Part shown: piece after piece, positions 44,275-64,000 of the stretch
Layout of the letters: the number at the start of each line of letters is the position of its first letter
Position numbering within the stretch: the first letter of the stretch is position 1
Assembly: GCA_934167755.1 (NCBI GenBank)
Contig: CAKPLT010000001.1
Span: 161,753 to 225,752, forward strand
Origin: an uncultured Clostridia bacterium
GTDB lineage: Bacteria > Bacillota > Clostridia > TANB77 > CAG-508
Reading direction: 5' to 3'
DNA length: 64,000 nt
Position numbers and translations under genes: made by a program
Notes under the pieces: generated by a model
The model's input: the letters and a program-made list of their open reading frames with translations, nothing else
Told to the model about the DNA's origin: nothing
Database searches by the model: none

Positions 44275-44275
44275 T

Positions 44276-45460
44276 CTACTTCATAGAAACATTACTAACC
44301 AACATATTCTCCAACAACTCTGCACTAGCCCTATCAGTAGACTCCAAATCATGAACATAAAACTTCAAAGTAGTATCAGTACTAGCATGACCTAATTTAT
44401 GAGAAACAGTCTTAACATCAACATTACCAGAAATAAGCAAAGTAGCAAAAGTATGTCTCAAATCATGAAAACGAATATGAGGAAAACCATTCCTAGTTAA
44501 GAAAGAACTAAACCATTTAGGACCAGTTGCAGGATTCATAATTCTACCATCAGCAGTAGTAAAAACATTTTTAGCACTTTTCCAAGATTTACCCAGAGCA
44601 AGTCTCATCTTACTTTGCTCACATCTCCATTGTTTAAGCAAATCAAAGCAAATACTAGGTACTGCTATTGTACGAGTACTTAAATCCGTTTTAGGACTCT
44701 TCTCAGAAGTAGGTTGACCACTTAAATAATAGGCACTTCTTTTAATACTTATTTTATGATTTTTAAAATCAATATCATCCCAATGCAAACCAACTAATTC
44801 ACCACGTCTAAAACCAGTTAATATAGCAAGAATAACAAAACATTTATATTTTATAGGAGCCTTTTTAAGTAGGACATTTATTAATCTTTTAGATGTTTCT
44901 TCATCATAACATGTCATTTTAGTACGTTTAAATTTAGGTTGAACAACTTTAGTACATGGATTATATGAAACCATGTCCCACCTGAGAGCATTACTGAAAA
45001 TGCTAGATAATATTTCATGAGCGCGATGTACACTAGCTGGAGATAAAGTTTTATAATTACCATTTTTGTCTTTTCTATTAGTTGGTTTAGTTAGCAAAAA
45101 ATCATACAGATTATCCAAATCCAAAAGTTTTATTTTATCAAGTCGCTTATTACCTAAATATGGCAAAATATGTTTATTTAATTTTTCGTTATAACTTTGG
45201 TAAGTTGTAGGCGAAAGATTAGGTTTTACATATGTTTCTAACCATTGCTTACTAAAATCATTTAATGTCACTTTTTTCGCAGAATATGTGCAACCGCCTT
45301 CAATTGAAGTGATAAATTTTGCAAGTTCTTTTTCGGCTTCTCTTTTAGATGAACAAGTAACAGTTTTATTAAAATATTTTCTTTTACCATTTGAATCGAA
45401 ACCATTACTAACACGAAGTCTATATTTTTCATTTCCCATATATAGAATGTTTCCTGCCAA
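44276..45460 (-). CDS. int: Tyrosine integrase (element 1)
   Basis: N-terminal MAGNILYMGNEKYRLRV...; C-terminal RFHDLRHTFATLLISGN...LGHASTDTTLKFYVH. Confidence 0.9.
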   Translation of the reverse strand: MAGNILYMGNEKYRLRVSNGFDSNGKRKYFNKTVTCSSKREAEKELAKFITSIEGGCTYSAKKVTLNDFSKQWLETYVKPNLSPTTYQSYNEKLNKHILPYLGNKRLDKIKLLDLDNLYDFLLTKPTNRKDKNGNYKTLSPASVHRAHEILSSIFSNALRWDMVSYNPCTKVVQPKFKRTKMTCYDEETSKRLINVLLKKAPIKYKCFVILAILTGFRRGELVGLHWDDIDFKNHKISIKRSAYYLSGQPTSEKSPKTDLSTRTIAVPSICFDLLKQWRCEQSKMRLALGKSWKSAKNVFTTADGRIMNPATGPKWFSSFLTRNGFPHIRFHDLRHTFATLLISGNVDVKTVSHKLGHASTDTTLKFYVHDLESTDRASAELLENMLVSNVSMK

Positions 45461-45472
45461 ATATATTACCTC

Positions 45473-46189
45473 CTACTTATTAATCCAATCTTGATTGTCT
45501 TTTAGCCATTTTGAAAGTTCATCAAATTTGATTTTATTATCTTTACAAAGTTTATACATTTTCTTAGCTTCAGAAGCCCAATTAGAAAATAGTTTATCTA
45601 CATTAGCAATATTTTTATTTCTTTGTTTCTTGGCATTTTGAGTTTTATATGCATTTCTATATAACTTTGTTATTTCATCAGATTGTACAGAGAGTTCATA
45701 ACCGATATCTCTACAAGTCTTACCATTTCTAAAAACACGAGTGCAATATATTTCATTACTCTTAGTTGTAGGAACAAAATATTTGCCACAATTTTTACAT
45801 TTATTAAATTGAATATTTAAAGCAGCGGCCCTATATAAAATGAATAAAATAAAATCATGATAAGATTTAAAAGTATAAATTTCTAATGGCATTTGTAAAT
45901 CATTTTCTATTTTAATTCCACTAAAAATTCTACATTCGAATGATCCCATTTTTGACAATTCATTACCTAAAGCTTTATATAATGAATCTGCATGATTATT
46001 TAACAAAAATTCAATTAAATGTTTTTCAGTTGCATTAGTTTCTTCAAATAATTCAATTACAAAATTACCTAAATTAAATTCTTTAGTAACAGCCTTTCTT
46101 TCAATATCTATAAGATAACATGTATCATTATTTATATATAGATAAATTTGCTTAGAGTCTTGTTTCATAACTATCTCCTTTTTAGACAT
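45473..46189 (-). CDS. Zn-ribbon protein (CKNCGKYF...C...C), co-transcribed upstream of int; paralogue of 54946-55941
   Basis: Shares the C.NCGKYF.P...YC..VF...KTC...G.EL block with the protein next to the second integrase. Confidence 0.5.
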   Translation of the reverse strand: MSKKEIVMKQDSKQIYLYINNDTCYLIDIERKAVTKEFNLGNFVIELFEETNATEKHLIEFLLNNHADSLYKALGNELSKMGSFECRIFSGIKIENDLQMPLEIYTFKSYHDFILFILYRAAALNIQFNKCKNCGKYFVPTTKSNEIYCTRVFRNGKTCRDIGYELSVQSDEITKLYRNAYKTQNAKKQRNKNIANVDKLFSNWASEAKKMYKLCKDNKIKFDELSKWLKDNQDWINK

Positions 46190-46307
46190 TTTAAAATAAA
46201 TTTCAAAAATGTCTTAACTTAAATTTGAATCTATTGTAACATATAGACATATTAAAAGTCAAGAATAATCTGTCAATTGCTTCAAATAATTCCAAGGAGG
46301 TGAGATT

Positions 46308-46502
46308 ATGCAAGAAAAAACAGATATTCCAGAGTTATTAACTGTTAAAGAAATTCAAGAAAAAATGAGAATTTCAAAAGCAGGAGTATATAACTTAATA
46401 AATTCTGGACAAATTCCATTATTAAAAATAGGGAATAGAAAATTAATACCTAAAAAAGAATTTTTAATTTGGTTAAAGAAACAGGAGGTGAATACAAAAT
46501 AA
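46308..46502 (+). CDS. xis: Excisionase/HTH DNA-binding protein (Xis-like)
   Basis: LLTVKEIQEKMRISKAGVYNLINSGQIP HTH; divergent from the int module. Confidence 0.6.
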   Translation: MQEKTDIPELLTVKEIQEKMRISKAGVYNLINSGQIPLLKIGNRKLIPKKEFLIWLKKQEVNTK

Positions 46503-46503
46503 A

Positions 46504-46722
46504 ATGGATGAAGAAGAATTCTTAACAAAACAACAGGTCATAGAAAAATATAAACCAATGTTTACAGAGTGGTCTCTTTCAAAATTAATTAGAGAAAGAA
46601 AAATAAAATTTGTAAGAATTGGTAGAAGAATATTTTTCACTAAAAAATCAGTAGATGATTTTATAAAATCTCAAGAAGAAAATAGTATTTTAAATGAAAG
46701 AAGGAATTTTCACATTGTATAA
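46504..46722 (+). CDS. Second small HTH (AlpA/Xis-like) protein
   Basis: FLTKQQVIEKYK...WSLSKLIRERKIKFVRIGRRIFF. Confidence 0.5.
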   Translation: MDEEEFLTKQQVIEKYKPMFTEWSLSKLIRERKIKFVRIGRRIFFTKKSVDDFIKSQEENSILNERRNFHIV

Positions 46723-46863
46723 AATAAAAAATTGTCCTTTCAATTGGTACTTGAAAGAACAATATAATTGAATATAAAGGCTAACCTATATAAACAATCT
46801 CTAAATATATTATATACGATTAGCCTAAAATATTCAATGATTTAACGAAAAGAGGTAAGAAAA

Positions 46864-49077
46864 TTGAATATTTATGAGCAAATAAAAAATAGTGTAACAA
46901 ACAAAGAGGTAGCAATTCATTATTTAGGACAACCAGTTAGAAAATCTGCAAACTATTTATTATATTCCTCACCTTTTAGAAAAGATAAAAATCCATCTTT
47001 TGCAGTTAATGATAAAGGTTTTATAGACTTTGGAGATAAAGAACATTGTGGAGATATGATTCAATTTGTAAAACAATTAAAAGGGTGTCAATATCCACAT
47101 GAAGCAGCAAAAATAATAGTAGAAGACTTGGGACTAAATATAACAATTCCAGAGAATATAAAAAATGTAAAAGAGAAGAAAAGTAAGAAAAAGTTTAGTG
47201 AATTATGTTTTGAAAAAGGAAATAAATCTAATAATATAATTTGCATGTTTGACTCACAAAAATATAATTCAAAACCAGCAAAGGAGCAAATAGGATATAT
47301 AAAAAATAGAATTTCAAAACTAAGAATGCAGGAATATAGATTAGAAGAAATAGAAAATAATATAATAAATGGCATGACAATAATACCAAGTGGAATAAAA
47401 GGAAATGCACAAGAAAATTGGAAAAAACAACAAATATTTTTAGTTGATTTTGATAACACATATAAAGGGGAAAAGTTATATAGTGATAACCCAAAACACA
47501 TAACAATTGAAAAAATTTTGAATTATTGCAAAAGTATAAACTTTGAATCGACATTTATATACACAACTTTTAGCAATTCTGAAAAACAAACAAAATTTAG
47601 ATTAGCATATGTATTTGAAGAACCAATTACGGAATATTTACTAGCATCTCAGATACCACAAAAATTATTAGAAATTTTTGAAGACTATTATCCAGATACA
47701 TCAAAACAGAATTTATCAGATATGTTTTTTGGAGGGCAAGAAATTCTATACACTTCTGACAACTATTATAAAATTTCAAAAAAGGAATTAGAAATTGAAC
47801 AAATAGAATACCAAGACATAAGTGAACCAGAAAAGATGTCTCATAATGTTATTGCTAATCAACTATTAGAGGAAAATGAAATCCGAGTGTATGAAAATAC
47901 ACTATACATATATGAAAATGGAGTATATAAAAAGAATGAAAAGAGCATCCATAGAAAAATTATAGAAATATATCCTAAATCAACAATTAGAATGCAAAAA
48001 GAAGTTATATCATATTTATTAACAATTGCTCCAGAGGCAGAACTACAATATGACAATTTTATTAATTTTAAAAACGGATTATTTGATTTAAGAACAAATC
48101 AGATAATACAGCATTCACCCCAATATTTTACAGTGAATCAAATAAATATAAATTTAAATTTAAATATTGATCCAATAAAAATTAGTGCAGTAGATAATTT
48201 TTTAGATAGAATAACTTGTGGCAATAACGAAAGAAAGAATGCAATACTGGAGATGATAGGATATTCTATGACTAGTAGTGTAAAGATGCAAAAAGCATTT
48301 GTATTATATGGTAAAACCGCAGGAAATGGAAAGTCTACTCTCTTAGAAATTATTGAAAGATTAATTGGAAGAGAAAATATAAGTCATGTAACATTGCAAG
48401 ATTTTGTTAGTAATAGATTTAGTGTTTCTGAAATAAAGGGAAAATTGGTTAATATAGTATCTGAAATGACAAAAGAATTTTTAAAAGATAGTAGTGTTTT
48501 CAAGCAAATTGTTACTGGAGATATTATAACTGTTGAAGAAAAGTTTAAAGATAGATATACAATAAAGCCATATGCTAAATACATTTTTACAGCAAATGAA
48601 CTGCCAAAAGTCGCAGATACTAGTAATGGATATTTCAGAAGACTTTTTATAATTCCATTTGAGGCTGTATTTACAGAAACAGAAAAAAGTAATTTCAACT
48701 TTAATGAATTGGTAACGCAACAAGCATTAGAATATTTGGCAGCAATATCATTAAAAGAATATATAAAAGCAGTAAGAAAAAATAAATTCTCTAATGTAGA
48801 GGAAAGTCAAAACATTATAGAATCATATAAAATGGATAGTAATACAGTAATAGCGTATTTATATGATAAAGATAGAATGAGAAGTTTATTAAGAAGCGGA
48901 AGAGTTAAAAAAAGAAATGAAGTATTTGCAGATTATATCAATTATTGCAAAGACTCTGGTTATATACACAAAGGCAGAAATAAGTTTTATGAAGAAGTTG
49001 AATCAACAGGGGTAGTACAAAAAGGTGTATATAATGGATATGATACATATATTTTTGATAAATCACTAATAAAATAG
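46864..49077 (+). CDS. Phage/plasmid primase-helicase (N-terminal CHC2 zinc finger primase + P4/D5-type SF3 NTPase), TTG start
   Basis: CHC2 region ...SPFRKDKNPSFAV...HCGD...; Walker A VLYGKTAGNGKST; Walker B/arginine-finger region. Confidence 0.78.
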   Translation: MNIYEQIKNSVTNKEVAIHYLGQPVRKSANYLLYSSPFRKDKNPSFAVNDKGFIDFGDKEHCGDMIQFVKQLKGCQYPHEAAKIIVEDLGLNITIPENIKNVKEKKSKKKFSELCFEKGNKSNNIICMFDSQKYNSKPAKEQIGYIKNRISKLRMQEYRLEEIENNIINGMTIIPSGIKGNAQENWKKQQIFLVDFDNTYKGEKLYSDNPKHITIEKILNYCKSINFESTFIYTTFSNSEKQTKFRLAYVFEEPITEYLLASQIPQKLLEIFEDYYPDTSKQNLSDMFFGGQEILYTSDNYYKISKKELEIEQIEYQDISEPEKMSHNVIANQLLEENEIRVYENTLYIYENGVYKKNEKSIHRKIIEIYPKSTIRMQKEVISYLLTIAPEAELQYDNFINFKNGLFDLRTNQIIQHSPQYFTVNQININLNLNIDPIKISAVDNFLDRITCGNNERKNAILEMIGYSMTSSVKMQKAFVLYGKTAGNGKSTLLEIIERLIGRENISHVTLQDFVSNRFSVSEIKGKLVNIVSEMTKEFLKDSSVFKQIVTGDIITVEEKFKDRYTIKPYAKYIFTANELPKVADTSNGYFRRLFIIPFEAVFTETEKSNFNFNELVTQQALEYLAAISLKEYIKAVRKNKFSNVEESQNIIESYKMDSNTVIAYLYDKDRMRSLLRSGRVKKRNEVFADYINYCKDSGYIHKGRNKFYEEVESTGVVQKGVYNGYDTYIFDKSLIK

Positions 49078-49341
49078 AAAAGCCCACTTACTGTAAAATA
49101 TAACCATATAGGTAGCTATACGACATTTTAGTGGTATTCTTATAATAAAAAATATATAATAATTATTATTGTATATATTTTTATGATTATAAAAATTGAA
49201 AAGAAAATATTAAAAGAGAAAAAACACCACTAAAAAAATTACACATGTTTTTAAAATGTGCGTAATTTTTTAAATTTTTTACACATATTTATTGCATATG
49301 TGTAAATTTTATATTATAATACACATATGGAGGTATGAAAA

Positions 49342-50400
49342 ATGAAACATGAATTAAAAATGTTGCCACCAGAAGATAATTTCAGAACAGTAAGAATATT
49401 AGAACAATTAGCAAGAACTAATAGAGCACTTGCAGAATTAAAAGGATATGCAAGAACAATACCAAATCAACATATATTAATAAATGCTATAACAATAAAT
49501 GAAGCAAAAGACAGTAGTGAAATAGAAAATATAGTTACTACACATGATGAAATATATAAAGCAATGACTCAAAGTAATTATAAGAATGAAAGTGCTAAAG
49601 AAGTAGTAGATTACAGAAGCGCTATATGGAGAGGCTATAGTTTAGTAAAAGAAAAAGAAATGATAACTACTAATATTTTGGTAGAGATTCAATCAATAAT
49701 AGAACACAACAATGCAGGAATCAGAAAAATTCCAGGAACAGTTTTAAAGAATTCCAAAACTGGAGAAATTGTATATACTCCACCAGAAACAGAAAAAGAA
49801 GTTAGAGAATATTTGAAGAATTTAGAAGAATATATAAATACTGATGATATGATAGATCCTCTAATAAAACTTGCGATTATCCATTATCAATTTGAATCAA
49901 TTCATCCATTTTATGATGGCAACGGAAGAACAGGAAGAATATTAAATATTTTATATTTAGTATTAAAGGATTTATTAGATAGTCCAATTCTATATTTAAG
50001 TAGGTACATTAACGACAATAAACAAACATATTACAAATTATTTAAAGAAGTAAGAGAAACAAATAATTTTGAAGAGTGGATTATATATATATTAATTGGA
50101 ATTGAAGAAACAGCAGAAGAAACAATGAAATTAATTAAAGACATTCAAGGTGAAATGGAAAAATATAGTGAAGAATTGAAAGAAAAATTGCCTAAGATAT
50201 ATAGTAAGGAACTATTAGAAGGACTATTTTTCGAAGTTTATACAAAAATAAATTATATTGAAAATATATGTGGAGTTACAAGAAAAACGGCAATGTCATA
50301 TTTAAGTCAATTAGAAGAAGCGGGATTCCTTACATCAGAAAAAATAGGAAGAGACAGAATATATAAAAATGACAGATTAATTAATCTATTAAAAAAATAA
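49342..50400 (+). CDS. Fic family protein (AMPylator/Doc family)
   Basis: Fic motif HPFYDGNGRTGR. Confidence 0.9.
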   Translation: MKHELKMLPPEDNFRTVRILEQLARTNRALAELKGYARTIPNQHILINAITINEAKDSSEIENIVTTHDEIYKAMTQSNYKNESAKEVVDYRSAIWRGYSLVKEKEMITTNILVEIQSIIEHNNAGIRKIPGTVLKNSKTGEIVYTPPETEKEVREYLKNLEEYINTDDMIDPLIKLAIIHYQFESIHPFYDGNGRTGRILNILYLVLKDLLDSPILYLSRYINDNKQTYYKLFKEVRETNNFEEWIIYILIGIEETAEETMKLIKDIQGEMEKYSEELKEKLPKIYSKELLEGLFFEVYTKINYIENICGVTRKTAMSYLSQLEEAGFLTSEKIGRDRIYKNDRLINLLKK

Positions 50401-50556
50401 ATAAAAGTGTGATGAGCTTCACAAATATTATATTAGAAAACTTAAATACAATCTAGAAAACCTAGGTTGTATTTTTTTTGTCGAAATTTATATTTTACTT
50501 ACAACATTCGACAAATTTTGCAGTAAAAAATTGATATGATATTTAAGGGGATATAT

Positions 50557-51270
50557 ATGAGAAAAAACAAGAAAAAAATAATATCAATTTTGTTAATTAT
50601 TTTAAGTATAATTTCAATAGGAGTAAATGTATATGCACATTCTGGAAGGACAGATTCAAGTGGAGGACATAAAGATAATAACAATAAAAGTGGTTTAGGA
50701 AGTTACCATTATCATTGTGGAGGACATCCAGCTCATTTACATACTAATGGTATTTGTCCATATTCATCTAGTTCATCAGCAAGTAGAAGTAGTACATCAA
50801 GTTCTTCATCATCAAGTACAAAAACAACATCTACGGTACCAACTGCAATAGCAGTAATAGATATTAAAATAAATGAAAATGTAACAAATATGGAAGAAGG
50901 AGAAAGTAAAAAATTAACTACTACAATAACACCGGACAATGCAACTGATAAAAATATTATGTGGAAATCAAGTGATGAAAGTATTGCAACAGTTAATACA
51001 ACAGGAGAAGTGACTGCAAAAAAATATGGAACAGTAGATATAACTGCAACTAGTGCTAATGGAAAAACAAGTACGATAAAAATAAATATAAAAGAATCAC
51101 CAAAAACTGAAAATAGTGCTATAATAAATACATCATCAACTAACAAAAACAATATAACTAATACTACAACAAATAGCAATGAAGATTCAAATCCGTTAGG
51201 AGGATTCTTAACACTAGGTTTATTAGGCGGAGGAAGTTATTTGGGATATAAAAAATATAAAAAAGCATAA
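50557..51270 (+). CDS. Secreted/cell-surface protein: signal peptide, His-rich YHYHCGGHPAHLH motif, Ser-rich linker, Big_2 Ig-like domain, C-terminal hydrophobic anchor + KKYKKA tail
   Basis: MRKNKKKIISILLIILSI signal peptide; Big_2-like KKLTTTITPDNATDKNIMWKSSDESIATVNTTGEVTAKKYGTVDITATS. Confidence 0.55.
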   Translation: MRKNKKKIISILLIILSIISIGVNVYAHSGRTDSSGGHKDNNNKSGLGSYHYHCGGHPAHLHTNGICPYSSSSSASRSSTSSSSSSSTKTTSTVPTAIAVIDIKINENVTNMEEGESKKLTTTITPDNATDKNIMWKSSDESIATVNTTGEVTAKKYGTVDITATSANGKTSTIKINIKESPKTENSAIINTSSTNKNNITNTTTNSNEDSNPLGGFLTLGLLGGGSYLGYKKYKKA

Positions 51271-51425
51271 TAAAATGGAAATGTTTTTATGGATTTTTGG
51301 ATGATAAAATCAAGTATAAAAAAGATACAGCAGAGAGAACAAGAGAAATAATAAAGATAATCATAAAAAGTTATAATACTGGATATGGAAAATATGGAAT
51401 TATTTAAATGGTGAGGAAGAGTAAT

Positions 51426-52868
51426 ATGGAAGATAATAGCTACAAATTTCCAAATAGTGAGATATTAATAAAAAATAATAAAGAAAGTAAAATAAACATT
51501 GAAACTGAAAAGAAAAAGATAGAAAATTTTTTCGAAAATTATAAAATTGATATAGATTGTAAAGAGGTATATGTAAGTATTAATGCTATAACATATGTAA
51601 TTGATTTAAAATGTAAAACTAAAGTTAGTACAATAAAAAGTTATAAAGATGATTTAAAGATGATTTTTAATGCAATAGATGTAGAATTTCAAGTTGCAAT
51701 TAACGGAACAGCTTATTTAGGCATACATTTTATAAAGCATAAAGATAAGGTATTAATGTTAGGTGATTTAATACAAGACAAAGAGTTTGTTGAAGCTAAA
51801 CAAAAAATTCCCATAATAATAGGAAAAGATTTTAATGATAATATTGTAATCGAAGATTTAACACAATTACCACATTTATTAGTTGCAGGAACAACAGGAA
51901 CAGGTAAAAGCAATTTTTTAAGTACAATTATTGTGGATATAATATATAAATTCAAACCATCAGAAGTAAAATTAATTTTAGTAGATACTAGAAAAACTAA
52001 TTTCCAAAGGTTTAATGCACTACCACATGTATTGATTCCTGTTATTACAGAATCACAGAAAGCCATTGGAATGCTAGCGTATTTAATACAAGAGATGAAT
52101 AATAGATATGATTTATTTGCGAATAAAAAAGTAGATAATATAGATAGCTATAATAAAATTTCTGAAGAAAAATTACCAAGAATTATAGTAATTATAGAAG
52201 ATTTTTATGATTTAATGATGGAGACAGAAAAAGAAATTGATATGTATATAAAAAGATTAATTTAAATGTGTAGAGCGTCAGGAATAAATATAATTATATC
52301 TACACAAAGACCATCTACAAATGTTATCACTGGAATAATAAAAGCAAATATGCCATCTAGAATAGCTTTTAAAGTACCATCAAAAATAGATTCAAAAACT
52401 ATAATAGATGTAGCAGGTGCAGAAGAACTATTAATATATGGAGATATTCTTTTTAATAAAGTGGGAGAATGTAAAATAAAAAGAGTTCAAACTCCATATA
52501 TTAGTGATAAAGAGATAGAAGATATAATGAATGAAATGAAAATTAATAACGAGTTACATTATAATACAGAATTATTTGATATGATAAATAAAAATGATAT
52601 AGATTTGAACCAAAAGAACATTATTGAATATGAAGAGGATGAAAAAGATCCATTTCTAGTAGATGCAATTGAAAGTGTAATAGAAACAGGACAAGCTTTA
52701 ACATCATTTATACAAAGAAGGTTTAAAGTAGGATATGCAAGAGCAGGAAAAATAATAGATCAAATGGAAGAAAGAGGTATAATATCTGGTTATCAAGGAA
52801 TCAAACCAAGAGAAGTTTTAATAACATTAGAAGAATGGAATAGATTAAAAAATATGAAAGGGATATAA
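51426..52868 (+). pseudogene. FtsK/SpoIIIE-family DNA translocase (conjugative-transfer type) interrupted by an in-frame TAA at 52263-52265
   Basis: Walker A LLVAGTTGTGKS in the first ORF; ...YIKRLI*MCRASGINIIISTQRPS continues the FtsK RAAGIHLILATQRPS motif in the same frame; C-terminal gamma-like winged helix. Confidence 0.6.
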
Positions 52869-52869
52869 T

Positions 52870-53277
52870 ATGAATTTTAGTAGTTTATATAGTGGAATAA
52901 AAGAATTAGGAAAAATATATCAAAAAATAGATAATATAGAAATACAAAAGAAATTACTAGACTTAAGTGAACAAGCCTTAGAAATGCAAAATGAAATATT
53001 AAGACTACAAGAAGAAAATATTAAATTAAAACAAAAGGAAGATGTAGTATCAAAAATAGAAAGACATAAAGATGCATTTATTACATTAAAAGATGATAAG
53101 AAAGGAATAATATATTGTTCTAATTGTTGGGATTCAAAAGGGTTATTAGTACAAGGACAATCCGATAATGATGGAACTTATTATTGTTATAATTGTAAAG
53201 AGAAAAAATATTATGATATAGATTTATATAATAGAATATATCATGACAATGAATATGATGATAGTAATATAATTTAA
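52870..53277 (+). CDS. Hypothetical coiled-coil + Zn-ribbon protein (CSNCW...CYNCKEKKY)
   Basis: ORF; four Cys in two CxxC pairs. Confidence 0.4.
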   Translation: MNFSSLYSGIKELGKIYQKIDNIEIQKKLLDLSEQALEMQNEILRLQEENIKLKQKEDVVSKIERHKDAFITLKDDKKGIIYCSNCWDSKGLLVQGQSDNDGTYYCYNCKEKKYYDIDLYNRIYHDNEYDDSNII

Positions 53278-54893: not shown

Positions 54894-54945
54894 TACTTTT
54901 TCACCTCCTTTCAGCATACCTATGGCAAGGATTTTATATATTAAA

Positions 54946-55941: not shown

Positions 55942-56131
55942 CTTTACCTCCTAATATCTACAAATTAAAAATTTTTGAACTTTTTTCAATTGTAAGGTTA
56001 CATATATCAGAAAAATATTATATAAAAGAGCCATACAATCAAAAACAAAAATAATAATTGTATGACAAAATAATACCATAATAATTTATATATGTCAACT
56101 ACAATTATAAAAATATTAGGAGGTGAAAGAA

Positions 56132-56338
56132 ATGGCACTAGATAACATTAAAAGAACAACTCTAACTGCAAAAGAAGCAGCAGAATATTTAGGAATTTCA
56201 TATTGGTTAATTACGCAATTAGTTAAAAGAAAACAAATTCCTTGCTCTAGAGTTGGAAAAAGAGTTTTATTCAGAAAAGAAGCCTTAGATATTTATCTAA
56301 GCAAAAAAGAAAATGATTCTATTGAAGAATCTTGCTAG
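56132..56338 (+). CDS. xis: Excisionase-family HTH protein
   Basis: LTAKEAAEYLGISYWLITQLVKRKQIPCSRVGKRVLF. Confidence 0.6.
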   Translation: MALDNIKRTTLTAKEAAEYLGISYWLITQLVKRKQIPCSRVGKRVLFRKEALDIYLSKKENDSIEESC

Positions 56339-56352
56339 AAAGAAGGGAGGAT

Positions 56353-56823
56353 ATGGGACAAGTTGGATGGATAAAAGTAAATACAAGTATATTTTCAAAT
56401 AGAAAAATTAAAATCCTACTAAAAGAAAGGGAAGGGGACACCTATTTTAGAATATGGATTCAGATTTTAACTATTGCTGGAGAATGTAACAGAGATGGTG
56501 GACTATATATTAGCGATAATACACCATTTAAAATCAAAGATTTTACCAATATTATTGGAAAATCTTCGAAAACATTTACGAGAATTTTACAAAAATTTAT
56601 CGATTTAGGAGTGCTAATTTATAAAAATGATACATACTTCGTAAAGAATTGGAGCAAGTATCAAAGTGCTGAAAAGCTAAAGAAAATTGGAAAATCAAAT
56701 AAAGTAGTTGAAGAAAATTTAATTGAAAAAAGTTTGAATAAAGTTACAGAAGAAAAGACAAGAAAAGAAGAAAATAGAAAGGAGAGCAGAATAGATGAAT
56801 CAAATTTTGAAACCCTCGATTAA
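56353..56823 (+). CDS. Phage replisome organiser N-terminal domain protein (DnaD-like)
   Basis: MGQVGWIKVNTSIFSNRKIKILL...GDTYFRIWIQIL is typical of the phage_rep_org_N family. Confidence 0.55.
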   Translation: MGQVGWIKVNTSIFSNRKIKILLKEREGDTYFRIWIQILTIAGECNRDGGLYISDNTPFKIKDFTNIIGKSSKTFTRILQKFIDLGVLIYKNDTYFVKNWSKYQSAEKLKKIGKSNKVVEENLIEKSLNKVTEEKTRKEENRKESRIDESNFETLD

Positions 56824-57664
56824 CAAAAGGGATTCCATTGAATGTGAATATTGCAAAAATACATTATACAGAAGAACAATAGAATGGGAACTATATGGTA
56901 CTAAGAGAATAATAACTTTAGACTATGAAAGATGCAAATGTAAGGATGCCCAGAAATATTGGAATGAATATGATCTGAAAAAATTAAGAATAATTGAAGA
57001 AGAAAAAAAGCTAGAATTAATGCAAGGGTTTTCGAGAAAAGTTGAAAAAATTATAAAAAACAGTAAGATGAGTAAAAGAAACTTGAGCTATAAATTTGAC
57101 AATTTTGAAATTAATAATAGCAATAAGAAAGCATTTAATAATTTAAAAAATTATAGTGAAAAATTAGTAAATAACATAGAGAAAAAAGGACTCATTTTAG
57201 TTGGGAATAATGGAGTGGGTAAAACACATTTAGCATGTAGTATTGCAAATAAATTTATAGAAAATGGAATACCAGTAATATACGGAACATTAATTAATTT
57301 ATTAGCAGAATTACGAAATTCATATGAAATAGATAATAGTATTTCTGAGATGGAAATTATCAAATTATATGAAAATGTTGATCTATTAATTATAGATGAT
57401 TTAGGAAAAGAAAAGCCAAGTGAATGGGGATTAGAAAAATTATTTACTATCATAAATAGTAGATATGAAAATAGTTTACCAGTAATTATAACAACAAATT
57501 ATAATCAAAATTCTTTAGTAAAAAGGCTAAGCATTAATGAAGAAATTGAAACAGCAAAGTCAATTATTTCTCGACTATATGAGATGTGCTATTTAGTAAA
57601 AATTGATGATATAGATCATAGAATTCAAAAGAAAAAAGTTAGTAATTGCGGTAACAATAACTAA
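56795..57664 (+). CDS. DnaC/IstB-like AAA+ helicase-loader ATPase
   Basis: Walker A LVGNNGVGKTHLA; Walker B LLIIDDLGKE. Confidence 0.8.
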   Translation: MNQILKPSINKRDSIECEYCKNTLYRRTIEWELYGTKRIITLDYERCKCKDAQKYWNEYDLKKLRIIEEEKKLELMQGFSRKVEKIIKNSKMSKRNLSYKFDNFEINNSNKKAFNNLKNYSEKLVNNIEKKGLILVGNNGVGKTHLACSIANKFIENGIPVIYGTLINLLAELRNSYEIDNSISEMEIIKLYENVDLLIIDDLGKEKPSEWGLEKLFTIINSRYENSLPVIITTNYNQNSLVKRLSINEEIETAKSIISRLYEMCYLVKIDDIDHRIQKKKVSNCGNNN

Positions 57665-57799
57665 CTAAAAAGATAACTTTTTTAAATATTTTATATAAAA
57701 ATTATAATTGATTCTTTTAAAAAAGTAAATAGAAATTGATGAAAAAATTAGGACAAGAAAGTATAAATTTTTGTATATATTTGTCCTAATTTTTATAAT

Positions 57800-57925
57800 A
57801 AAAATATCCCTCGGAGAGCAAAAAGGGTATTAGGGCATTTTGCCCTAAACAGTGAAAAGGGTGTCAAGACACCAGGCTGGCGAATATTAGGTACTAAAAA
57901 ATACTACCTAAATTCGAGCAAAATA
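57800..57925 (+). other. Non-coding region with three consecutive stable hairpins (gggcattttgccc; ggtgtcaagacacc; ggtactaaaaaatactacc); candidate structured RNA or protein-binding site
   Basis: Inverted repeats seen in the sequence; no ORF. Confidence 0.3.
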
Positions 57926-58106
57926 AATTTTGCTAATTATTAATGCTTTGTAAACTAGCATTAATAAATTTTATATTAAGAAAGTGATTAAAAATGAAGA
58001 GAGATTCAGAACAAGTTTTAGATAGTATTTTCTTATCGTATAATAAAATTTTAAAGAGATTACATTTATTAGGAATAACAACTAAACATGGAAAAAAATA
58101 ACTCAT

Positions 58107-58337
58107 ATGGATTTAAGAAAAGCTGTAGATGTTATGGTAAAAAAACATCCAACATGTAGATGGAGAAGTGAGAAAATTAGAAGTAGAAAATATTTTATTT
58201 TAATAGAGGGTTATGAATGGTTAAAGCGAGTATATTTTCAAAAAGAAAAATCACTAATTGATGCTGATGTAGATTTTTTTAAAACAAGAATTAAATTATA
58301 TGAAGAATTTTTAAAATTAGAGCACAATGAAAATTGA
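58107..58337 (+). CDS. Hypothetical small protein
   Basis: ORF only. Confidence 0.35.
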   Translation: MDLRKAVDVMVKKHPTCRWRSEKIRSRKYFILIEGYEWLKRVYFQKEKSLIDADVDFFKTRIKLYEEFLKLEHNEN

Positions 58338-58349
58338 TGGAATGAAGAT

Positions 58350-58616
58350 ATGAATAAAAAACAATTATGTAAGTATTTTGATAGAAAAGATATTACTGTT
58401 AGAAAAGCAATTAAAAAAATGTGCGACTATGGATTGAGTGAATATAAATTTTTAATAAATAATAAAGTTGTAATTTCAAAAGAAGGAGTGAAATGGATTT
58501 GTAAAAATGTATTTAAACAAAAGTATTTAGAATTATTAGAAAAGCACAAAATGGAATTGACAGAGAAGTATATAAAAGCTGGTTACATATATGATAATTT
58601 CTTTTGGAGAAATTAG
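58350..58616 (+). CDS. Hypothetical small protein
   Basis: ORF only. Confidence 0.35.
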   Translation: MNKKQLCKYFDRKDITVRKAIKKMCDYGLSEYKFLINNKVVISKEGVKWICKNVFKQKYLELLEKHKMELTEKYIKAGYIYDNFFWRN

Positions 58617-58738: not shown

Positions 58739-59083
58739 ATGAGTAAATTTAAAACTTTTTTGAATAAAAAATTAAAAAGCAAAAAAATAAGCCAGAACAA
58801 ATTTGCAAGAATGATTGATGTTACACCGACCTATGTAAATAAAATGATAAATGGTACAAGCGGACCACCAGACAGGGGTTTACAAATAAAAATTGCAAAT
58901 AGTTTAGAAATAGAAGGGGAAGAAAGAAATAAGTTCTTCAATAACTTAGCAAAAGAAAAAGACGATATTCCTTCCGATATATATGAAGGTATTTTTTGCA
59001 ATAAAAATAGCTGGGACAAAATAAGAGAACTATTAAAAAAAGAAAAAATTATAAAAATAAATTTATCTGGCAGAAAAGGATAG
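58739..59083 (+). CDS. XRE-family HTH transcriptional regulator, directly upstream of hsdM2
   Basis: ISQNKFARMIDVTPTYVNKMINGT Cro/C1-type HTH. Confidence 0.7.
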   Translation: MSKFKTFLNKKLKSKKISQNKFARMIDVTPTYVNKMINGTSGPPDRGLQIKIANSLEIEGEERNKFFNNLAKEKDDIPSDIYEGIFCNKNSWDKIRELLKKEKIIKINLSGRKG

Positions 59084-59098
59084 ATATAGGGGGATAAG

Positions 59099-60673
59099 AT
59101 GATGGATAATAAAAAAGAAAAAGAAAGAGATGAACTTCATAAAACAATATGGAAAATGGCGGATGAATTAAGAGGCGCTGTTGATGGATGGGATTTTAAA
59201 CAATATGTATTAGGACTATTATTTTATAGATTTATATCAAAAAATATAGAAAACTATGTTAATACTAATCAGAGAAAATTAGGAAAAAAAGACTTCGAGT
59301 ACAAAAATCTTTCTAATGAGGACGCAGAATATGGTAGGGAAGATATTTTAAATGATAAGGGATTCTTTATTTTGCCAAGTGAGTTATTTTGTAATGTTAG
59401 AAAAAAGGCAAAAGTAAATCCTGATTTAAATATAACAATACATAAAGTTTTTGAAAATATAGAAGCATCTGCTAAAGGGACAGCATCAGAAAAAGCAGTT
59501 AAAGGTTTATTTGATGATTTTGATGTTAAAGGAAATAAATTAGGAAATACAGTAGATGAAAAAAATGAGAAATTAATTAAAATGCTAGATGCAATTGGAG
59601 ATTTGAAATTAGGTAATTACTCAGATAATACAATTGATGCTTTTGGAGATGCATATGAATATTTAATGACAATGTATGCATCCAATGCTGGTAAGTCTGG
59701 AGGAGAATTTTTTACACCACAAGAAGTTGGTGAATTGCTTGCTAAAATTGTAATAATGGATAAAAAAGAAGTAAATAAAGTATATGATCCATGCTGTGGA
59801 TCTGGAGGATTATTGTTAAAGTTCGCAAAAATACTTGGAAAAGAAAACATAAAAAATGGTTTTTATGGGCAAGAAATTAATTTAACGACATATAACCTAG
59901 CTAGAATAAATATGTTTTTACATGACATTAATTATAATAATTTTGACATATCTAGAGGAGACACTTTAACAAATCCTATGAATTGGGATGATGAGCCTTT
60001 TGATGCAATAGTATCTAATCCACCATATTCTATTCATTGGGCGGGAAAATCAGACCCGTTATTAATAAATGATGAAAGATTTGCACCAGCAGGAATACTT
60101 GCACCAGAATCAAAAGCAGATCTTGCATTTACGATGCATATGTTATCATGGTTAAGTCAAAAAGGAACAGCTGCAATAGTTCAATTTCCAGGAGTATTAT
60201 ATCGTGGTGGAGCAGAACAAAAAATTAGAAAATATATGGTAGATAACAATTTTGTAGATACTGTTATTCAATTGCCAAGTGATTTATTTTTTGGTACATC
60301 TATAGCAACATGTATATTAGTATTAAAAAAATCAAAAAAAACTAACGATATACTAATTATTGATGCTTCAAATAAATTTATAAGAAACTCCAATAAAAAT
60401 AAGTTATCTCCAGATAATATAAATTGGATTATAGACAAAATCAAAAATAGAAAAGGCAAAGAAAATGAACCAGTAGTAGTAGTAGCTAATGAAGAAGTAG
60501 AAAAAAATAATTATAATATATCAGTCAATACATACATAAAGAATAATTTGGAAGAAGAAAAAATTGATATAAAAGAAGTAAATAAAAATATAAAAGAAAT
60601 AGTGAAAAGAGAAAACAAAATTAGAATTGAACTTGATAAAATAATCCAAGAATTGGAGGAAGATAATGAGTAA
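59099..60673 (+). CDS. hsdM: Type I R-M methyltransferase M subunit (system 2)
   Basis: FGDAYEYLMTMYA...GEFFTP; YDPCCGSGGLLL; NPPYS. Confidence 0.95.
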   Translation: MMDNKKEKERDELHKTIWKMADELRGAVDGWDFKQYVLGLLFYRFISKNIENYVNTNQRKLGKKDFEYKNLSNEDAEYGREDILNDKGFFILPSELFCNVRKKAKVNPDLNITIHKVFENIEASAKGTASEKAVKGLFDDFDVKGNKLGNTVDEKNEKLIKMLDAIGDLKLGNYSDNTIDAFGDAYEYLMTMYASNAGKSGGEFFTPQEVGELLAKIVIMDKKEVNKVYDPCCGSGGLLLKFAKILGKENIKNGFYGQEINLTTYNLARINMFLHDINYNNFDISRGDTLTNPMNWDDEPFDAIVSNPPYSIHWAGKSDPLLINDERFAPAGILAPESKADLAFTMHMLSWLSQKGTAAIVQFPGVLYRGGAEQKIRKYMVDNNFVDTVIQLPSDLFFGTSIATCILVLKKSKKTNDILIIDASNKFIRNSNKNKLSPDNINWIIDKIKNRKGKENEPVVVVANEEVEKNNYNISVNTYIKNNLEEEKIDIKEVNKNIKEIVKRENKIRIELDKIIQELEEDNE

Positions 60674-61850
60674 AATTAATGATTTAATTAAAAAGATGTG
60701 TTCGGATGGCGTTGAATACCGTAAATTAAATGAATTGTTGGATTATATTCAACCTTCAAGGTATATTGTAAAAAACACAAATTATGATAAAAACTATACA
60801 ATACCAGTTCTAACTGCTGGACAGACTTTTATATTGGGATATACCAATGAAATCGATGGTATTTATAAGGCATCTAAAGAAAAACCAGTAATAATATTTG
60901 ATGACTTTACAACTTCAAATCATTGGGTAGAATTTGATTTTAAAGTAAAATCATCTGCAATGAAAATTCTTGTGCCTAAGACCAATGATTCATTTAAGTT
61001 TATTTATTATTGCATGCAAAATATTGAATATATCCCAAAAGAGCATTCAAGACAATGGATTCAGAAATATAGTGAATTTAAAATACCTTTGCCAAAAAAA
61101 GAAATACAAGAGAAAATAGTAGAGATACTTGATAAATTTGGTGAGTTGGAAGCAGAGTTGGAAGCAGAGTTGGAAGCAAGAAAAAAACAATACGAATTTT
61201 ATAGTAAAAAGATTTTTAAATTTAAAAAACCAGTTAAATATGTTCCAATTGGAGAAATATCTAGCACTATTACAGATTATGTTGCAAATGGTAGTTTTGC
61301 AGAAATAGCAAAAAATGTTCAATATAAAAGCGAACCAGATTATGCGGTATTACTTAGAACAGTAGATTATTCAAATGGATTTAATCCTGATAAATTTGTT
61401 TATATTGATAAACATGCATATGGTTTTTTAAAAAAATCAAAGCTATTTGGTGGAGAGATTATAATTAATAATGTAGGAGCAGGTGTTGGAACCACATTTC
61501 TTTGTCCAAAATTAGATATAAATATGAGCTTGGCTCCAAATTCGATTATGATAAAAACACCGAACAATAAGTTTTATTATTATTGGTTAAAAAGCATATA
61601 TGGACAAGAAGCTATAAAAAGTATTGTATCTAAAAGTGCTATGCCCAAATTTAATAAAACTGAATTTAGAAAAATAATGGTTCCAGTTTTACCGGAGCAA
61701 CAACAAAATGAAATTGTAAATATATTAGAAAAAATTGATAATCTCATAAATGACATATCAGAAGGATTGCCTGCCGAAATTAAACTCAGAAGGAAACAAT
61801 ATGAATATTATCGAAATAAATTATTAAACTTTAAAGAGGTGATTGCTTAA
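60666..61850 (+). CDS. hsdS: Type I R-M specificity subunit (two TRDs) with LEAE x3 in the central conserved region
   Basis: Two TRDs separated by ...GELEAELEAELEARKKQYEFYSKK; C-terminus ...RRKQYEYYRNKLLNFKE. Confidence 0.9.
   Translation: MSKINDLIKKMCSDGVEYRKLNELLDYIQPSRYIVKNTNYDKNYTIPVLTAGQTFILGYTNEIDGIYKASKEKPVIIFDDFTTSNHWVEFDFKVKSSAMKILVPKTNDSFKFIYYCMQNIEYIPKEHSRQWIQKYSEFKIPLPKKEIQEKIVEILDKFGELEAELEAELEARKKQYEFYSKKIFKFKKPVKYVPIGEISSTITDYVANGSFAEIAKNVQYKSEPDYAVLLRTVDYSNGFNPDKFVYIDKHAYGFLKKSKLFGGEIIINNVGAGVGTTFLCPKLDINMSLAPNSIMIKTPNNKFYYYWLKSIYGQEAIKSIVSKSAMPKFNKTEFRKIMVPVLPEQQQNEIVNILEKIDNLINDISEGLPAEIKLRRKQYEYYRNKLLNFKEVIA
61143..61178 (+). repeat. Perfect 12-bp tandem repeat gagttggaagca x3 inside hsdS (central spacer-length region)
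   Basis: Seen in the sequence; encodes (LEAE)3. Confidence 0.9.
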
Positions 61851-62947
61851 TGGATGAATATAATTCAATTGAAGCAGTTTCTGACAAAATAAAAAGCAAT
61901 TTAAATTCAAACAATCAAAATAAGAATGTTTCTATTTTGTATGCTTTTAATGCAACTGGAAAAACAAGATTATCTACAACATTAACTGACGAGATGGATG
62001 ATGGAAAAACATTATGTTATAATGCTTTCGTAGAAGATCTTTTTACATGGGATAATGATAATTATATTTTCAAAATTAATCCATCCTGTTGGTTGGTAGA
62101 ATTTATTAAAGAACAGGGTCTTGAAAATCAAATTATAGAAAATTTTACGAGTATTATTAATTCAAAGGTTGAACCAAGTTTTGAATTAGATAGAGGTGAA
62201 ATTATTTTTAGCATTGCTTCAGGTGATAGTGACTATGATAAAGGAATAAAAATATCTAAAGGAGAAGAAAGCGTATTTATATGGTCAATTTTCTACACAA
62301 TTTTAGAGACAGCAATAGATACATTAAATATGGAAAAAGATGACAGATTTACTGAATTTTTTGATAGTTTAGAGTATGTTATTATAGATGATCCAGTCTC
62401 ATCGATAGATGATTCAAAGATTATTTCAATTGCAATGATGTTGATAAAAGTAATAGATAAATATAAAAACAATAGTAATCATAAATTGAAATTTTTAATA
62501 ACAACTCATCACGCATTATTTTATAATGTTATATATAATCAATATAGGAAAAATAAAGAATATAATTTTAAACCATTCATATTGAAAAAGAAGAATAAAA
62601 TATATGAACTAAAAAATCAGAAAATAGATAGTCCATTTGGATATCATCTAATGGTCAAAGAAGAAATAGAACGAGCCATACAAGAAGAAGATATTCAAAA
62701 ATATCATTTTAATTTATTTAGAAGCTTATTAGAAAAGACAGCAAATTTTTTAGGATATGGTAATTGGGTTGACTGTATTGAAAATGATAAAAAACAAGAA
62801 TTTATAAGAATCATTAATTTATATAGTCATAGTAGATTGTCAGATATTGAATATAGAGAATTAACATATGATGATAAAGAATTATTTATAGATACATATA
62901 ATAAATTTGTTAAGAATTTTAAATGGGGGAAAATAGATGGAGAATAA
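61850..62947 (+). CDS. ABC-ATPase-like protein embedded between hsdS and hsdR; PrrC-like anticodon nuclease candidate
   Basis: Walker A-like NATGKTRLS; Walker B/D-loop-like YVIIDDPVSSID; C-terminal R-x3-E...(32)...H (FRSLLEK...YSHS), the spacing of the PrrC ACNase triad. Start and stop overlap the neighbouring genes. Confidence 0.55.
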   Translation: MDEYNSIEAVSDKIKSNLNSNNQNKNVSILYAFNATGKTRLSTTLTDEMDDGKTLCYNAFVEDLFTWDNDNYIFKINPSCWLVEFIKEQGLENQIIENFTSIINSKVEPSFELDRGEIIFSIASGDSDYDKGIKISKGEESVFIWSIFYTILETAIDTLNMEKDDRFTEFFDSLEYVIIDDPVSSIDDSKIISIAMMLIKVIDKYKNNSNHKLKFLITTHHALFYNVIYNQYRKNKEYNFKPFILKKKNKIYELKNQKIDSPFGYHLMVKEEIERAIQEEDIQKYHFNLFRSLLEKTANFLGYGNWVDCIENDKKQEFIRIINLYSHSRLSDIEYRELTYDDKELFIDTYNKFVKNFKWGKIDGE

Positions 62948-64000
62948 AAGAAATATTATATCTGAGAGTGATAATTCAACAGTATTAACAGAATATAAGC
63001 CATTAGAAAGAAAAGAAACATCATATCAAAGTGAAGCAGAACTTGAGAAAAATTTTATTAAAATATTGCAAGAGCAATCTTATGAATATTTAAATATAAA
63101 TAATGAAAAAGATTTAATAAAAAATCTAAAAGAGAAATTAGAAAAACTAAATAAAATTAAATTTACAGATAAAGAGTGGGAAGATTTATTTAATAACATT
63201 ATTGCTAATCCCAATGATGGAATAATAGAGAAAACAAAAAAAATTCAAGAAGATTATAAGCAAATATTAACATTAGAAAATGGAGAATTAAGAAATATTT
63301 ATTTAATAGATAAAGATAATATTCATAATAATAGCGTTCAAGTAATTAATCAATATGAAGTAGAAACGGATAAAAGAAAAAATAGATATGACGTTACGAT
63401 TTTAGTGAATGGACTCCCTATGGTTCATGTAGAACTGAAAAGAAGAGGTGTTGAATTAAGACAAGCCTTTAATCAAATAGAGAGATATCAAAGAGATTCA
63501 TTTTGGTACAATTCTGGATTATATAATTATGTTCAAATATTTGTTATAAGTAATGGGACATTTACTAAGTATTATTCAAATACTACAAGATATAAACATC
63601 TTGATGGAAAAACTGTAAAAAAGTCTAATTCATTTGAATTTACATCATATTGGGCAGATCAAAATAATAATGGGATTTGTGATTTGGAAGATTTTGCAAG
63701 AACTTTCTTTAGCAAAAGAACATTACTAAATATAATAACTAAATATTGCATTCTTACTTCTGAAGAAGATTTATTAGTAATGAGACCATATCAAATTACA
63801 GCAACAGAAAAAATAATAAATAAAATAGAAATAGCAAATAATTACAATGAATATGGAACAATTGAAGGTGGTGGCTATATATGGCATACAACTGGATCAG
63901 GAAAAACATTGACTTCTTTTAAAACAGCTCAAATAGCAAGTAAGCTTGAATATATAGATAAGGTTATATTTGTAGTAGATAGAAAAGATTTGGATTATCA
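62937..64000 (+). CDS. hsdR: Type I restriction enzyme R subunit (system 2), N-terminal part; continues beyond the window
   Basis: RYDVTILVNGLPMVHVELK nuclease motif; MRPYQITATE...HTTGSGKTLTSF helicase motif I. Open to the window end. Confidence 0.88.
   Translation, partial: MENKRNIISESDNSTVLTEYKPLERKETSYQSEAELEKNFIKILQEQSYEYLNINNEKDLIKNLKEKLEKLNKIKFTDKEWEDLFNNIIANPNDGIIEKTKKIQEDYKQILTLENGELRNIYLIDKDNIHNNSVQVINQYEVETDKRKNRYDVTILVNGLPMVHVELKRRGVELRQAFNQIERYQRDSFWYNSGLYNYVQIFVISNGTFTKYYSNTTRYKHLDGKTVKKSNSFEFTSYWADQNNNGICDLEDFARTFFSKRTLLNIITKYCILTSEEDLLVMRPYQITATEKIINKIEIANNYNEYGTIEGGGYIWHTTGSGKTLTSFKTAQIASKLEYIDKVIFVVDRKDLDY

Follow-up and report, generated by a model that had tools for sequence, protein, structure and literature searches.

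How did two paralogous integrase modules and a series of anti-phage genes come to lie side by side in one bacterial genome, and where do the units that carry them begin and end? These questions are raised by a 64,000-nucleotide stretch, hereafter the window, of the uncultured Clostridia assembly GCA_934167755.1 (contig CAKPLT010000001.1, positions 161,753 to 225,752), whose G+C content is ~26% over its whole length. An earlier reading made from the letters and open reading frames (ORFs) without database searches, the sequence-only reading, had proposed two tandem integrative elements, Element 1 at about 44.3–53.3 kb and Element 2 from 53.5 kb on, which carry the tyrosine integrase genes int1 and int2, respectively. 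Our analysis indicates that the locus is very probably a tandem array of two related integrative elements that recombine at the anticodon stem-loop of the initiator tRNA (tRNA-fMet). This conclusion is carried by the gene content, by three same-strand attachment (att) cores with pairs of arm motifs, by homologous ends and backbones elsewhere, and by close relatives that are integrated in complete tRNA-fMet genes and form arrays of variable composition.

Genes were annotated with Pfam, PADLOC, PHROGs and NCBIfam, and tRNAs with ARAGORN and Rfam. Related contigs and loci compared with the window are labeled by L-numbers (L012, L120 and so on); among them, L012 is 100% identical to the window end and reaches 9 kb past it. 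Conserved element segments were mapped by blastn of the window against relatives (L120, L117 and L121). A scan of GTDB with one genome per species, using an integrase alignment as the query, returned 80 loci whose integrases are 54–99% identical to int2, and a single scan of metagenomes used the right arm plus core as its pattern, i.e., it sampled right-arm junctions.

Attachment cores, arm motifs and element limits

The att core is a 15-bp sequence, CTCATAACCC(A/G)AAGG, that corresponds to the anticodon stem-loop of tRNA-fMet. Three copies of its 10-mer CTCATAACCC are found in the window, where 0.10 would be expected: one in the complete tRNA-fMet gene (minus strand), one at 33788 (plus strand) and one at 53480 (plus strand). 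A further same-strand core lies at L012 12942, which corresponds to ~70,483 in window coordinates, ~6.5 kb past the window end. Direct repeats from the target tRNA, i.e., the same-strand cores at 33788, 53480 and L012 12942, bound the elements. Core copy 1 (CTCATAACCCG..., 33788–33802, plus strand) marks the left end of Element 1 and has a homologous counterpart at L120 21088; no tRNA 5' half lies upstream of it, and the sequence downstream is not tRNA-like. Core copy 2 (53480–53494) is embedded in a tRNA-fMet 3' half recognized by sequence alignment, which spans the anticodon stem to CCA (53477–53525, plus strand), lacks a 5' half, and is both the right attachment site (attR) of Element 1 and the left attachment site (attL) of Element 2. 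Within this segment, the 20 nt GGGCTCATAACCCAAAGGTC exactly match the complete tRNA-fMet, and in 13 loci, L037 among them, the equivalent segment forms part of a real, complete tRNA-fMet. A decayed tRNA-fMet 3' half (L012 12942–12990) directly follows the third core.

Paired arm motifs, different for the two elements, lie inside the cores of each element at mirrored distances. For the Element 1 motif, TGTCACAC[A/T]TTGGTCACA, the window holds just two copies where 0.08 would be expected, one at +108 from core 1 and the other at −147 from core 2. Its left copy, TGTCACACTTTGGTCACA (33896–33913, plus strand; 108 bp inside core 1), is kept in L120, and its right copy, TGTCACACATTGGTCACA (53333–53350, plus strand; 147 bp inside core 2), in the right arms of L117, L120 and L122. 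The Element 2 motif, GGGGACAA(T/A)TTGGGGACA, stands at +116 from core 2 as GGGGACAATTTGGGGACA (53596–53613, plus strand) and at −136 from core 3 as GGGGACAAATTGGGGACA (L012 12806–12824). Judged by position and conservation, these motifs are candidate arm-type integrase sites.

On this basis, Element 1 would extend from 33788 to ~53494 (~19.7 kb) and Element 2 from 53480 to ~70.5 kb (~17 kb, of which 6.5 kb lie outside the window). The sequence-only reading had started Element 1 at 44276, ~10.5 kb too far to the right: core and arm match at 33788 and 33896, and the 21 bp that separate the stop of a NifU-like gene (44254) from the stop of int1 (44276) hold no repeat, which together place the left end at 33788; L120, an independent element built alike, agrees with this limit. 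For Element 2, the proposed left end near 53.5 kb stands (53480), but the element does not end with the window. A generic direct-repeat search of 43–64 kb returned no att repeats, including none near 44260 where one had been suggested, while the repeats anticipated in 53300–53530 and beyond the window end correspond to the tRNA-fMet 3' half and to the third core. Rfam at permissive thresholds gave no tRNA match at either junction, because only half-tRNAs are present there.

Both elements would still be able to excise, with int1 and int2 recombining at the CTCATAACCCRAAGG core. The predicted circular (attP) junctions are ...CAGCACTTACGGG/CTCATAACCC/GTATACCAATAATTTG for Element 1 and ...CACAATTAAATT/CTCATAACCC/AAAGGTCACAAGTTCGAG for Element 2, and loss of Element 2 would leave ...CAGCACTTACGGG/CTCATAACCC/GAAGCCTCAAAATTC.

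Relatives of the elements and occupancy of the locus

Contigs with int1 relatives of 83–89% identity carry DUF6809, a defence block, int, DUF6076, two HTH_17 genes and a primase. In L120, whose integrase is 83% identical to int1, cores at 21088 and 1830 enclose the entire element; each is accompanied by an Element 1-type arm motif, spaced as expected, and the order is left arm, ASCH, DUF6809, defence cargo, int, DUF6076, xis, xis, primase, Big_2 and right arm. By blastn, L120 shares with the window the left core and arm, ASCH, the DUF6809 region, the stretch from int1 to the primase N-terminus, Big_2, and the right arm and core; segments of ASCH and DUF6809 also recur in the elements of L117 and L121. 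The window interval 36443–44288 is replaced by a methyltransferase through Abi_2 in L120 and by a Type I restriction-modification (R-M) system plus kinase in L117, and since these defence genes differ, the interval represents a cargo slot. The L120 element is bordered on its right by the same choloylglycine hydrolase (CBAH) gene that is found to the right of Element 2 (87% nucleotide identity); L120 therefore represents a related genome with the Element 1 type, but without Element 2, at the same locus. The left arm that follows the core is not tRNA-like in the Element 1 type (33798–33830; L120 21088), whereas it is a tRNA 3' half in the Element 2 type (53490–53525).

Copies of int2 with 89–99% identity are present in many metagenome-assembled genomes (MAGs) of gut Clostridia. 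The Element 2 backbone (53480–58615) is 95–98% identical in five MAGs (L037, L039, L040, L042 and L062), with different cargo beyond it, and two further loci, L021 and L023 (integrases 90% and 99% identical to int2), carry other R-M cargo. All contigs that encode window-identical proteins come from human-gut metagenomes, and the nearest genomes are uncultured gut Clostridia ('Clostridium sp. CAG:575/440/571', UMGS and Hadza MAGs). In the 80 GTDB loci, cores situated no more than 1.6 kb after int are part of a complete tRNA-Met(CAT) in 13 cases and of just a tRNA-like 3' half in 29, and they run into non-tRNA sequence in 12; these 12 loci, too, have non-tRNA left arms. A regenerated complete tRNA at the integrase-proximal end, absent from the window, is thus present in 13 related loci, e.g., L037. 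In L041, L044, L073, L085 and L088, the complete tRNA is located 2–9 kb further on, and these loci are accordingly arrays; in L041, an Element 1-like unit (ASCH/TehB, a Fic remnant and Big_2) is inserted between the tRNA and an Element 2-like element. Many other relatives likewise belong to mixed arrays.

Occupancy of the locus differs between related genomes. Right arms of the Element 1 and Element 2 types adjoin identical host flanks on separate contigs (L124/L163 versus L129, L162 versus L127, and L157 versus L145). In the metagenome scan, right arms of both types also adjoin many different left arms, and identity at the junctions stops after CTCATAACCC(G/A)AAGG. Samples that contain an identical 135-aa Element 1 protein (aa, amino acids) show another Element 2 variant, with an Eco47II endonuclease as cargo, at the same junction, e.g., L165. 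The serial integration at one site and the resulting defence-cargo array put forward by the sequence-only reading are thus supported by the shared tRNA-fMet core, the arm motif pairs and the variable arrays; a conserved core-genome region without flanking repeats, which that reading named as evidence to the contrary, is not seen in relatives. Element 2 would have entered the right att site of a resident Element 1; the reverse order is possible, but the simplest history is the former, with the Element 1 type present first, as it is in L120.

The only complete initiator tRNA-fMet of the window (25702–25777, minus strand; ARAGORN and Rfam) has a CAT anticodon, a C1/A72 mismatch and a GGG/CCC anticodon stem; inverted relative to the array, it is context and belongs to neither element. 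L062, L066 and L068 also have a complete tRNA-fMet opposite to the array, and in L105 a divergent pair of tRNA-fMet genes is separated by ~550 bp. The ancestral locus may have had such a pair, one of which was consumed by the array as its target. We also considered that the inverted tRNA-fMet and core 1 arose by integrase-mediated inversion. The recurrent inverted layout and the L105 pair speak for this origin, which was not adopted, as no arm sequences flank the real tRNA and the 8 kb between the inverted tRNA and core 1 have no match in the 80 loci except for one methyltransferase stretch in L077.

Gene content of the two elements and their flanks

The two elements share a common build, consisting of a switch and recombination module with int and DUF6076 on one strand and HTH_17 excisionase-like genes divergent from them, a replication-initiation module of their own, which is a primase-helicase in Element 1 but pairs a replisome organiser with a DnaC-like loader in Element 2, and variable cargo slots with anti-phage genes. 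The cargo comprises a Type I R-M system with rearrangeable hsdS pieces between DUF6809 and int1 as well as SoFic in Element 1, and a prr-type cassette followed by HTH-Fic and a RecD-like helicase in Element 2. The gene lists given by the sequence-only reading (integrase, zinc-ribbon protein, two Xis-like genes, primase-helicase, Fic, surface protein and FtsK-like ATPase in the first element; integrase, zinc-ribbon protein, Xis, replisome organiser, DnaC-like loader, XRE and a complete Type I R-M with PrrC in the second) hold up, except that the FtsK-like gene, though present, is broken, and that Element 2 is not the sole carrier of a Type I R-M system, Element 1 having one as well (36561–43818).

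The integrases int1 (394 aa; 44276–45460, minus strand; Pfam Phage_integrase PF00589 and SAM_3 PF14659) and int2 (391 aa; 53718–54893, minus strand; PF00589 and PF14659) are homologous paralogs with 37% identity over their full length (E=2e-99); their N-termini, previously described as near-identical, are merely homologous. The true start of int2 is MAGYLEK, as called on identical contigs, and the longer ORF of the window represents an upstream extension. Each int is preceded on the same strand by a DUF6076 gene that encodes a C-x-N-C-G-K-Y-F zinc ribbon, as the sequence-only reading had noticed. DUF6076 protein 1 (238 aa; 45473–46189, minus strand; Pfam PF19553, 6.8e-14) and protein 2 (331 aa; 54946–55941, minus strand; Pfam 1.4e-13) are 34% identical over their C-terminal ~150 aa (E=2e-18), confirming that the two zinc-ribbon–integrase modules are paralogous.

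For DUF6076 protein 2, 33 homologs were found, and a hidden Markov model built from 30 homologs detects the family at 61 of the 80 loci, without exception on the strand of int and upstream of it. The gap between the two genes sometimes holds 1–4 kb of inserted genes, such as an acetyltransferase in L021 (11047–11457) and up to ~4 kb in many of L041–L116, which points to a second cargo slot inside the module. In L183 (IMG/VR), whose integrase is 38% identical, the order DUF6076, int, complete tRNA-Met is retained. More distant homologs with 27–42% identity over the zinc-ribbon domain occur on the predicted viral contigs L175–L182 and L184 (IMG/VR), with no related integrase detected nearby. For a confident AlphaFold model of DUF6076 protein 2, with a predicted local distance difference test (pLDDT) score of 81, Foldseek gave no significant match in PDB or BFVD; DUF6076 matched no family of PHROGs or NCBIfam, and no mention of it was found in the literature. 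Since the gene adjoins int and is divergent from the xis-like genes, its position suggests, as a guess, that DUF6076 is a regulator or accessory factor of the integration switch.

In Element 1, the left module consists of NUDIX (33999–34490), ASCH (34503–34886), a TehB-like methyltransferase (34883–35461), peptide deformylase (Def, 35488–35898) and DUF6809 (36105–36377, minus strand), with Pfam labels taken from identical contigs. The Element 1 NUDIX has a paralog (~77% nucleotide identity) on the right side of the array in L012 (14942–15406) and in L117 (1827–2300), in the latter case behind a decayed Element 1-type left arm; these right-side paralogs are probably remnants of further elements. 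The cargo hotspot (36561–43818) contains hsdR (36561–39314) and hsdM (39327–40901) of the Type I R-M system, three hsdS pieces (40934–41479 and 41496–42119 on the minus strand, 43249–43818 on the plus strand) and, amid them, a tyrosine recombinase (42197–43192, minus strand). With hsdS pieces in both orientations around a recombinase, 40934–43818 is laid out like an invertible specificity switch. When these pieces were searched with a 12-nt seed, neither inverted repeats nor inversion sites were located, so the system would be invertible as judged from its gene layout. The last gene of the cargo interval, NifU/IscU-like (43892–44254, plus strand), is inside Element 1 by its position and has an NCBIfam match below the cut-off.

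Divergent from DUF6076–int are two HTH_17 (AlpA/Xis-like) genes (46308–46502 and 46504–46722, plus strand; Pfam, PHROGs excisionase families), followed on the same strand by the replication module, i.e., the primase-helicase (46864–49077) with CHC2 zinc finger, D5_N and DUF5906 domains (Pfam; PHROGs DNA primase, 6.7e-98). Further on, all on the plus strand, are a SoFic-type Fic protein (49342–50400; Pfam; PADLOC SoFic, 5.2e-114), a Big_2-domain protein with a signal or transmembrane N-terminus (50536–51270; Pfam) that is kept in the L120, L062 and L041 units, the FtsK-like ATPase (51408–52868; Pfam alpha, motor and gamma domains) and, as the last gene of the element, a 135-aa coiled-coil and Cys-rich protein (52870–53277). 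An in-frame TAA (52263–52265), kept on all contigs of the window's lineage (e.g., L001, L011 and L167–L171), interrupts the FtsK-like gene. The read-through translation of this gene aligns past the stop to an intact 519-aa homolog in L066, and L166 has an intact 480-aa copy; the gene is probably a pseudogene in the window's lineage.

In Element 2, the DUF6076–int2 module is followed on the plus strand by an excisionase-like HTH_17/Tn916-Xis gene (56123–56338), a replisome organiser (Phage_rep_org_N, 56332–56823) and a DnaC/IstB-like loader (56795–57664), all three assigned by Pfam and PHROGs, and then by two small conserved ORFs (58107–58337 and 58350–58616) and an XRE-type helix-turn-helix protein (58739–59083). 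The prr-type Type I R-M cassette (PADLOC, Pfam; plus strand) is arranged as hsdM (59099–60673), hsdS (60666–61850), prrC (61850–62947) and hsdR (from 62937 past the window end at 64000), with overlapping or abutting ORFs. The hsdR gene is complete (1053 aa) on window-identical contigs that reach past the end, e.g., L012, where Element 2 continues with the rest of hsdR, HTH-Fic (PADLOC PDC-S04), a RecD-like helicase (914 aa; PADLOC candidate family PDC-S53), a 97-aa gene and the core.

Sequence comparison assigns the prrC product of Element 2 to the true PrrC family: the PADLOC model is matched at 2.7e-103 (positions 21–347 of the 372-position model), Pfam AAA_13 also matches, and the predicted residues R291-x3-E295-x31-H327 are spaced exactly as in the catalytic triad of EcoPrrC, R320/E324/H356 (PMC1484252). 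PrrC genes are consistently tied to EcoprrI-type R-M loci (PMC1484252, PMC3458546). Like the E. coli prr locus, which belongs to the EcoprrI Type Ic R-M system (PMC1484252, PMC3458546), the cassette has prrC between hsdS and hsdR, and its product combines a P-loop N-domain with the identically spaced triad; unlike it, the protein has 365 aa and belongs to a low-GC Clostridia host. By analogy, the R-M complex would hold the predicted PrrC anticodon nuclease latent until a phage anti-restriction factor frees it.

To the right of Element 2 on L012 are the decayed tRNA 3' half, a 245-aa gene and the CBAH gene. L012 and L013 are identical to the window through Element 2 and diverge after CBAH (NUDIX versus a YgjP-like gene); the right flank is therefore variable between strains. 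On the left, from tRNA-fMet to core 1, a cluster at 26077–33590 encodes a PemK-domain 377-aa protein, a 440-aa protein, an Eco57I/MmeI-like methyltransferase, a 751-aa HATPase_c_3 protein, a 203-aa protein and a PtuB-like HNH nuclease. PADLOC recognizes only the methyltransferase and the HNH protein, and the cluster looks like an unclassified defence system.

Competing explanations and known systems

Several observations weigh against a tandem array of elements that are still mobile. The array has no anchoring complete tRNA-fMet: none is present at 33788 or 53480, no recognizable tRNA 5' half lies upstream of 33788, and the sole complete copy of the window is opposite to the array and 8 kb left of core 1. 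No same-species empty site was found, all contigs with identical NifU-like, HNH or 135-aa proteins carrying Element 1, and no attP junction was found in IMG/VR. Element 1 may thus be fixed and immobile in the window's species, and it may be decaying, with a left arm that cannot rebuild the tRNA and a broken FtsK-like gene. The roles proposed for the arm motifs and for DUF6076 are, moreover, read from position and conservation only, and 33788–36443 could be the remnant of an older element fused to Element 1, comparable to the left-module-only mini-units of L038.

These points are taken furthest by the view that the whole locus is an island of old integrations, no longer mobile and kept only for its defence genes. 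The uniform Element 1 layout on all contigs with identical flanking proteins, the missing anchor, the broken FtsK-like gene and a T-stem mismatch in the half at 53477–53525, absent from L040 and L062, would fit it. We nevertheless consider it rather unlikely, since both integrases and both sets of xis genes are intact, as is every core and arm motif, the partner at the right junction differs among samples with an identical Element 1 protein, and Element 2-type backbones are 95–98% identical across several species, which implies recent horizontal movement. A division of the array into three units, in which 33788–44275 is an int-less remnant of an older Element 1-type element fused to 44276–53494 by a deletion that removed the att site, appears less probable still. 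Decay and deletion are evidently frequent in such arrays: in L038, two cores enclose a 2-kb unit with only the left arm, NUDIX, ASCH and DUF6809-adjacent sequence, L117 has a decayed Element 1-type left arm and NUDIX after a complete Element 1-type element, and L012 has a NUDIX paralog to the right of its array. However, DUF6809, defence cargo and int form one block in L117, L120 and L121 (int1 variants of 88% and 83% identity), this block lies inside a single core pair with matching arm motifs in L120, the window has only two Element 1 arm motifs (33896 and 53333), and 36443–44276 contains no core or arm remnant.

The tandem-array reading leaves room for different modes of transfer. Scans of the genes tested with Pfam and PHROGs, several small ORFs being unannotated, revealed no packaging, capsid, relaxase or type IV secretion genes, and a satellite-like lifestyle, conjugative mobilization and complete immobility are all possible. 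That the elements are phage satellites akin to P4 or to phage-inducible chromosomal islands (PICIs), packaged by a helper and using their defence cargo in satellite–helper competition, is conceivable but on balance doubtful. The layout of int, divergent regulator, AlpA/Xis and primase or rep genes with cargo hotspots fits satellite architecture, DUF6076 is located where master repressors sit in PICIs, and no conjugation genes are seen. P4-like satellites are also known to carry defence hotspots (PMC9122126). Against this, the same scans found no terminase small subunit, capsid-remodeling, head or packaging gene, and IMG/VR contains no close relative of int1 or int2 and no attP junction. Mobilization by conjugation, with the FtsK-like ATPase of Element 1 as translocase or coupling protein, is the least probable of these explanations. 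Transfer of some Gram-positive elements is driven by FtsK-like translocases, and the alpha/motor/gamma protein is intact in L166 and L066; yet the gene is interrupted in the window and absent from Element 2 and from the Element 1-type elements of L117 and L120, and no relaxase, oriT or type IV secretion gene is seen.

Beyond the array itself, we tentatively propose, with somewhat less than even confidence, that DUF6076–int elements form an undescribed and widespread family of initiator-tRNA islands in uncultured gut Clostridia, which build combinatorial defence arrays, have two lifestyles and use DUF6076 as a family-specific switch factor. 'Restoring' members such as Element 2 would carry the tRNA-fMet 3' half and could enter a live gene, while 'non-restoring' members such as Element 1 would need leftover att sites of other elements or would destroy a redundant tRNA-fMet copy.

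For this island family, exact ends, a 15-bp target and candidate arm sites are now at hand, which makes excision and integration directly testable. Anti-phage genes such as R-M, PrrC, Fic and Abi are moved by this family between abundant uncultured human-gut Clostridia, and its arrays explain the pile-up of defence genes beside one tRNA locus in these genomes. DUF6076 is flagged as a conserved integrase partner with neither a literature record nor a fold match. The value of these findings lies in annotation and an experimental handle rather than in a new concept: tRNA-targeting islands, tandem accretion and defence cargo hotspots are known, while the DUF6076–integrase family seems undescribed.

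In tRNA islands, integration splits the tRNA gene, the island copy restores the 3' part and the displaced fragment marks the far end (PMC4383910). Like the islands with tyrosine integrases collected in Islander (PMC4383910), the present elements form arrays through repeated use of one site, and the Element 2 type is integrated at tRNA-fMet in 13 genomes. Unlike them, the window array is without a complete tRNA, the Element 1 type is without a tRNA-restoring sequence, and the target is the anticodon stem-loop of the initiator tRNA. P4-like satellites and PICIs (PMC9122126) share with our elements an integrase, an AlpA/Xis-type helix-turn-helix protein, a primase-helicase or rep module, and defined slots in which defence systems are swapped between near-identical backbones; they differ in that no capsid-redirecting or packaging genes, no helper and no close IMG/VR relatives were found here. 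In the tycheposons of Prochlorococcus, later arrivals push earlier elements inward and scatter partial tRNAs and remnants (bioRxiv 10.1101/2020.12.28.424599). Compared by architecture alone, tycheposons resemble the array in combining a tyrosine recombinase, an excisionase, primase/helicase or replication genes and cargo at tRNA genes, whereas the elements described here reside in gut Clostridia, a different phylum, carry cargo that is almost entirely anti-phage instead of nutrient genes, and have DUF6076 as their hallmark.

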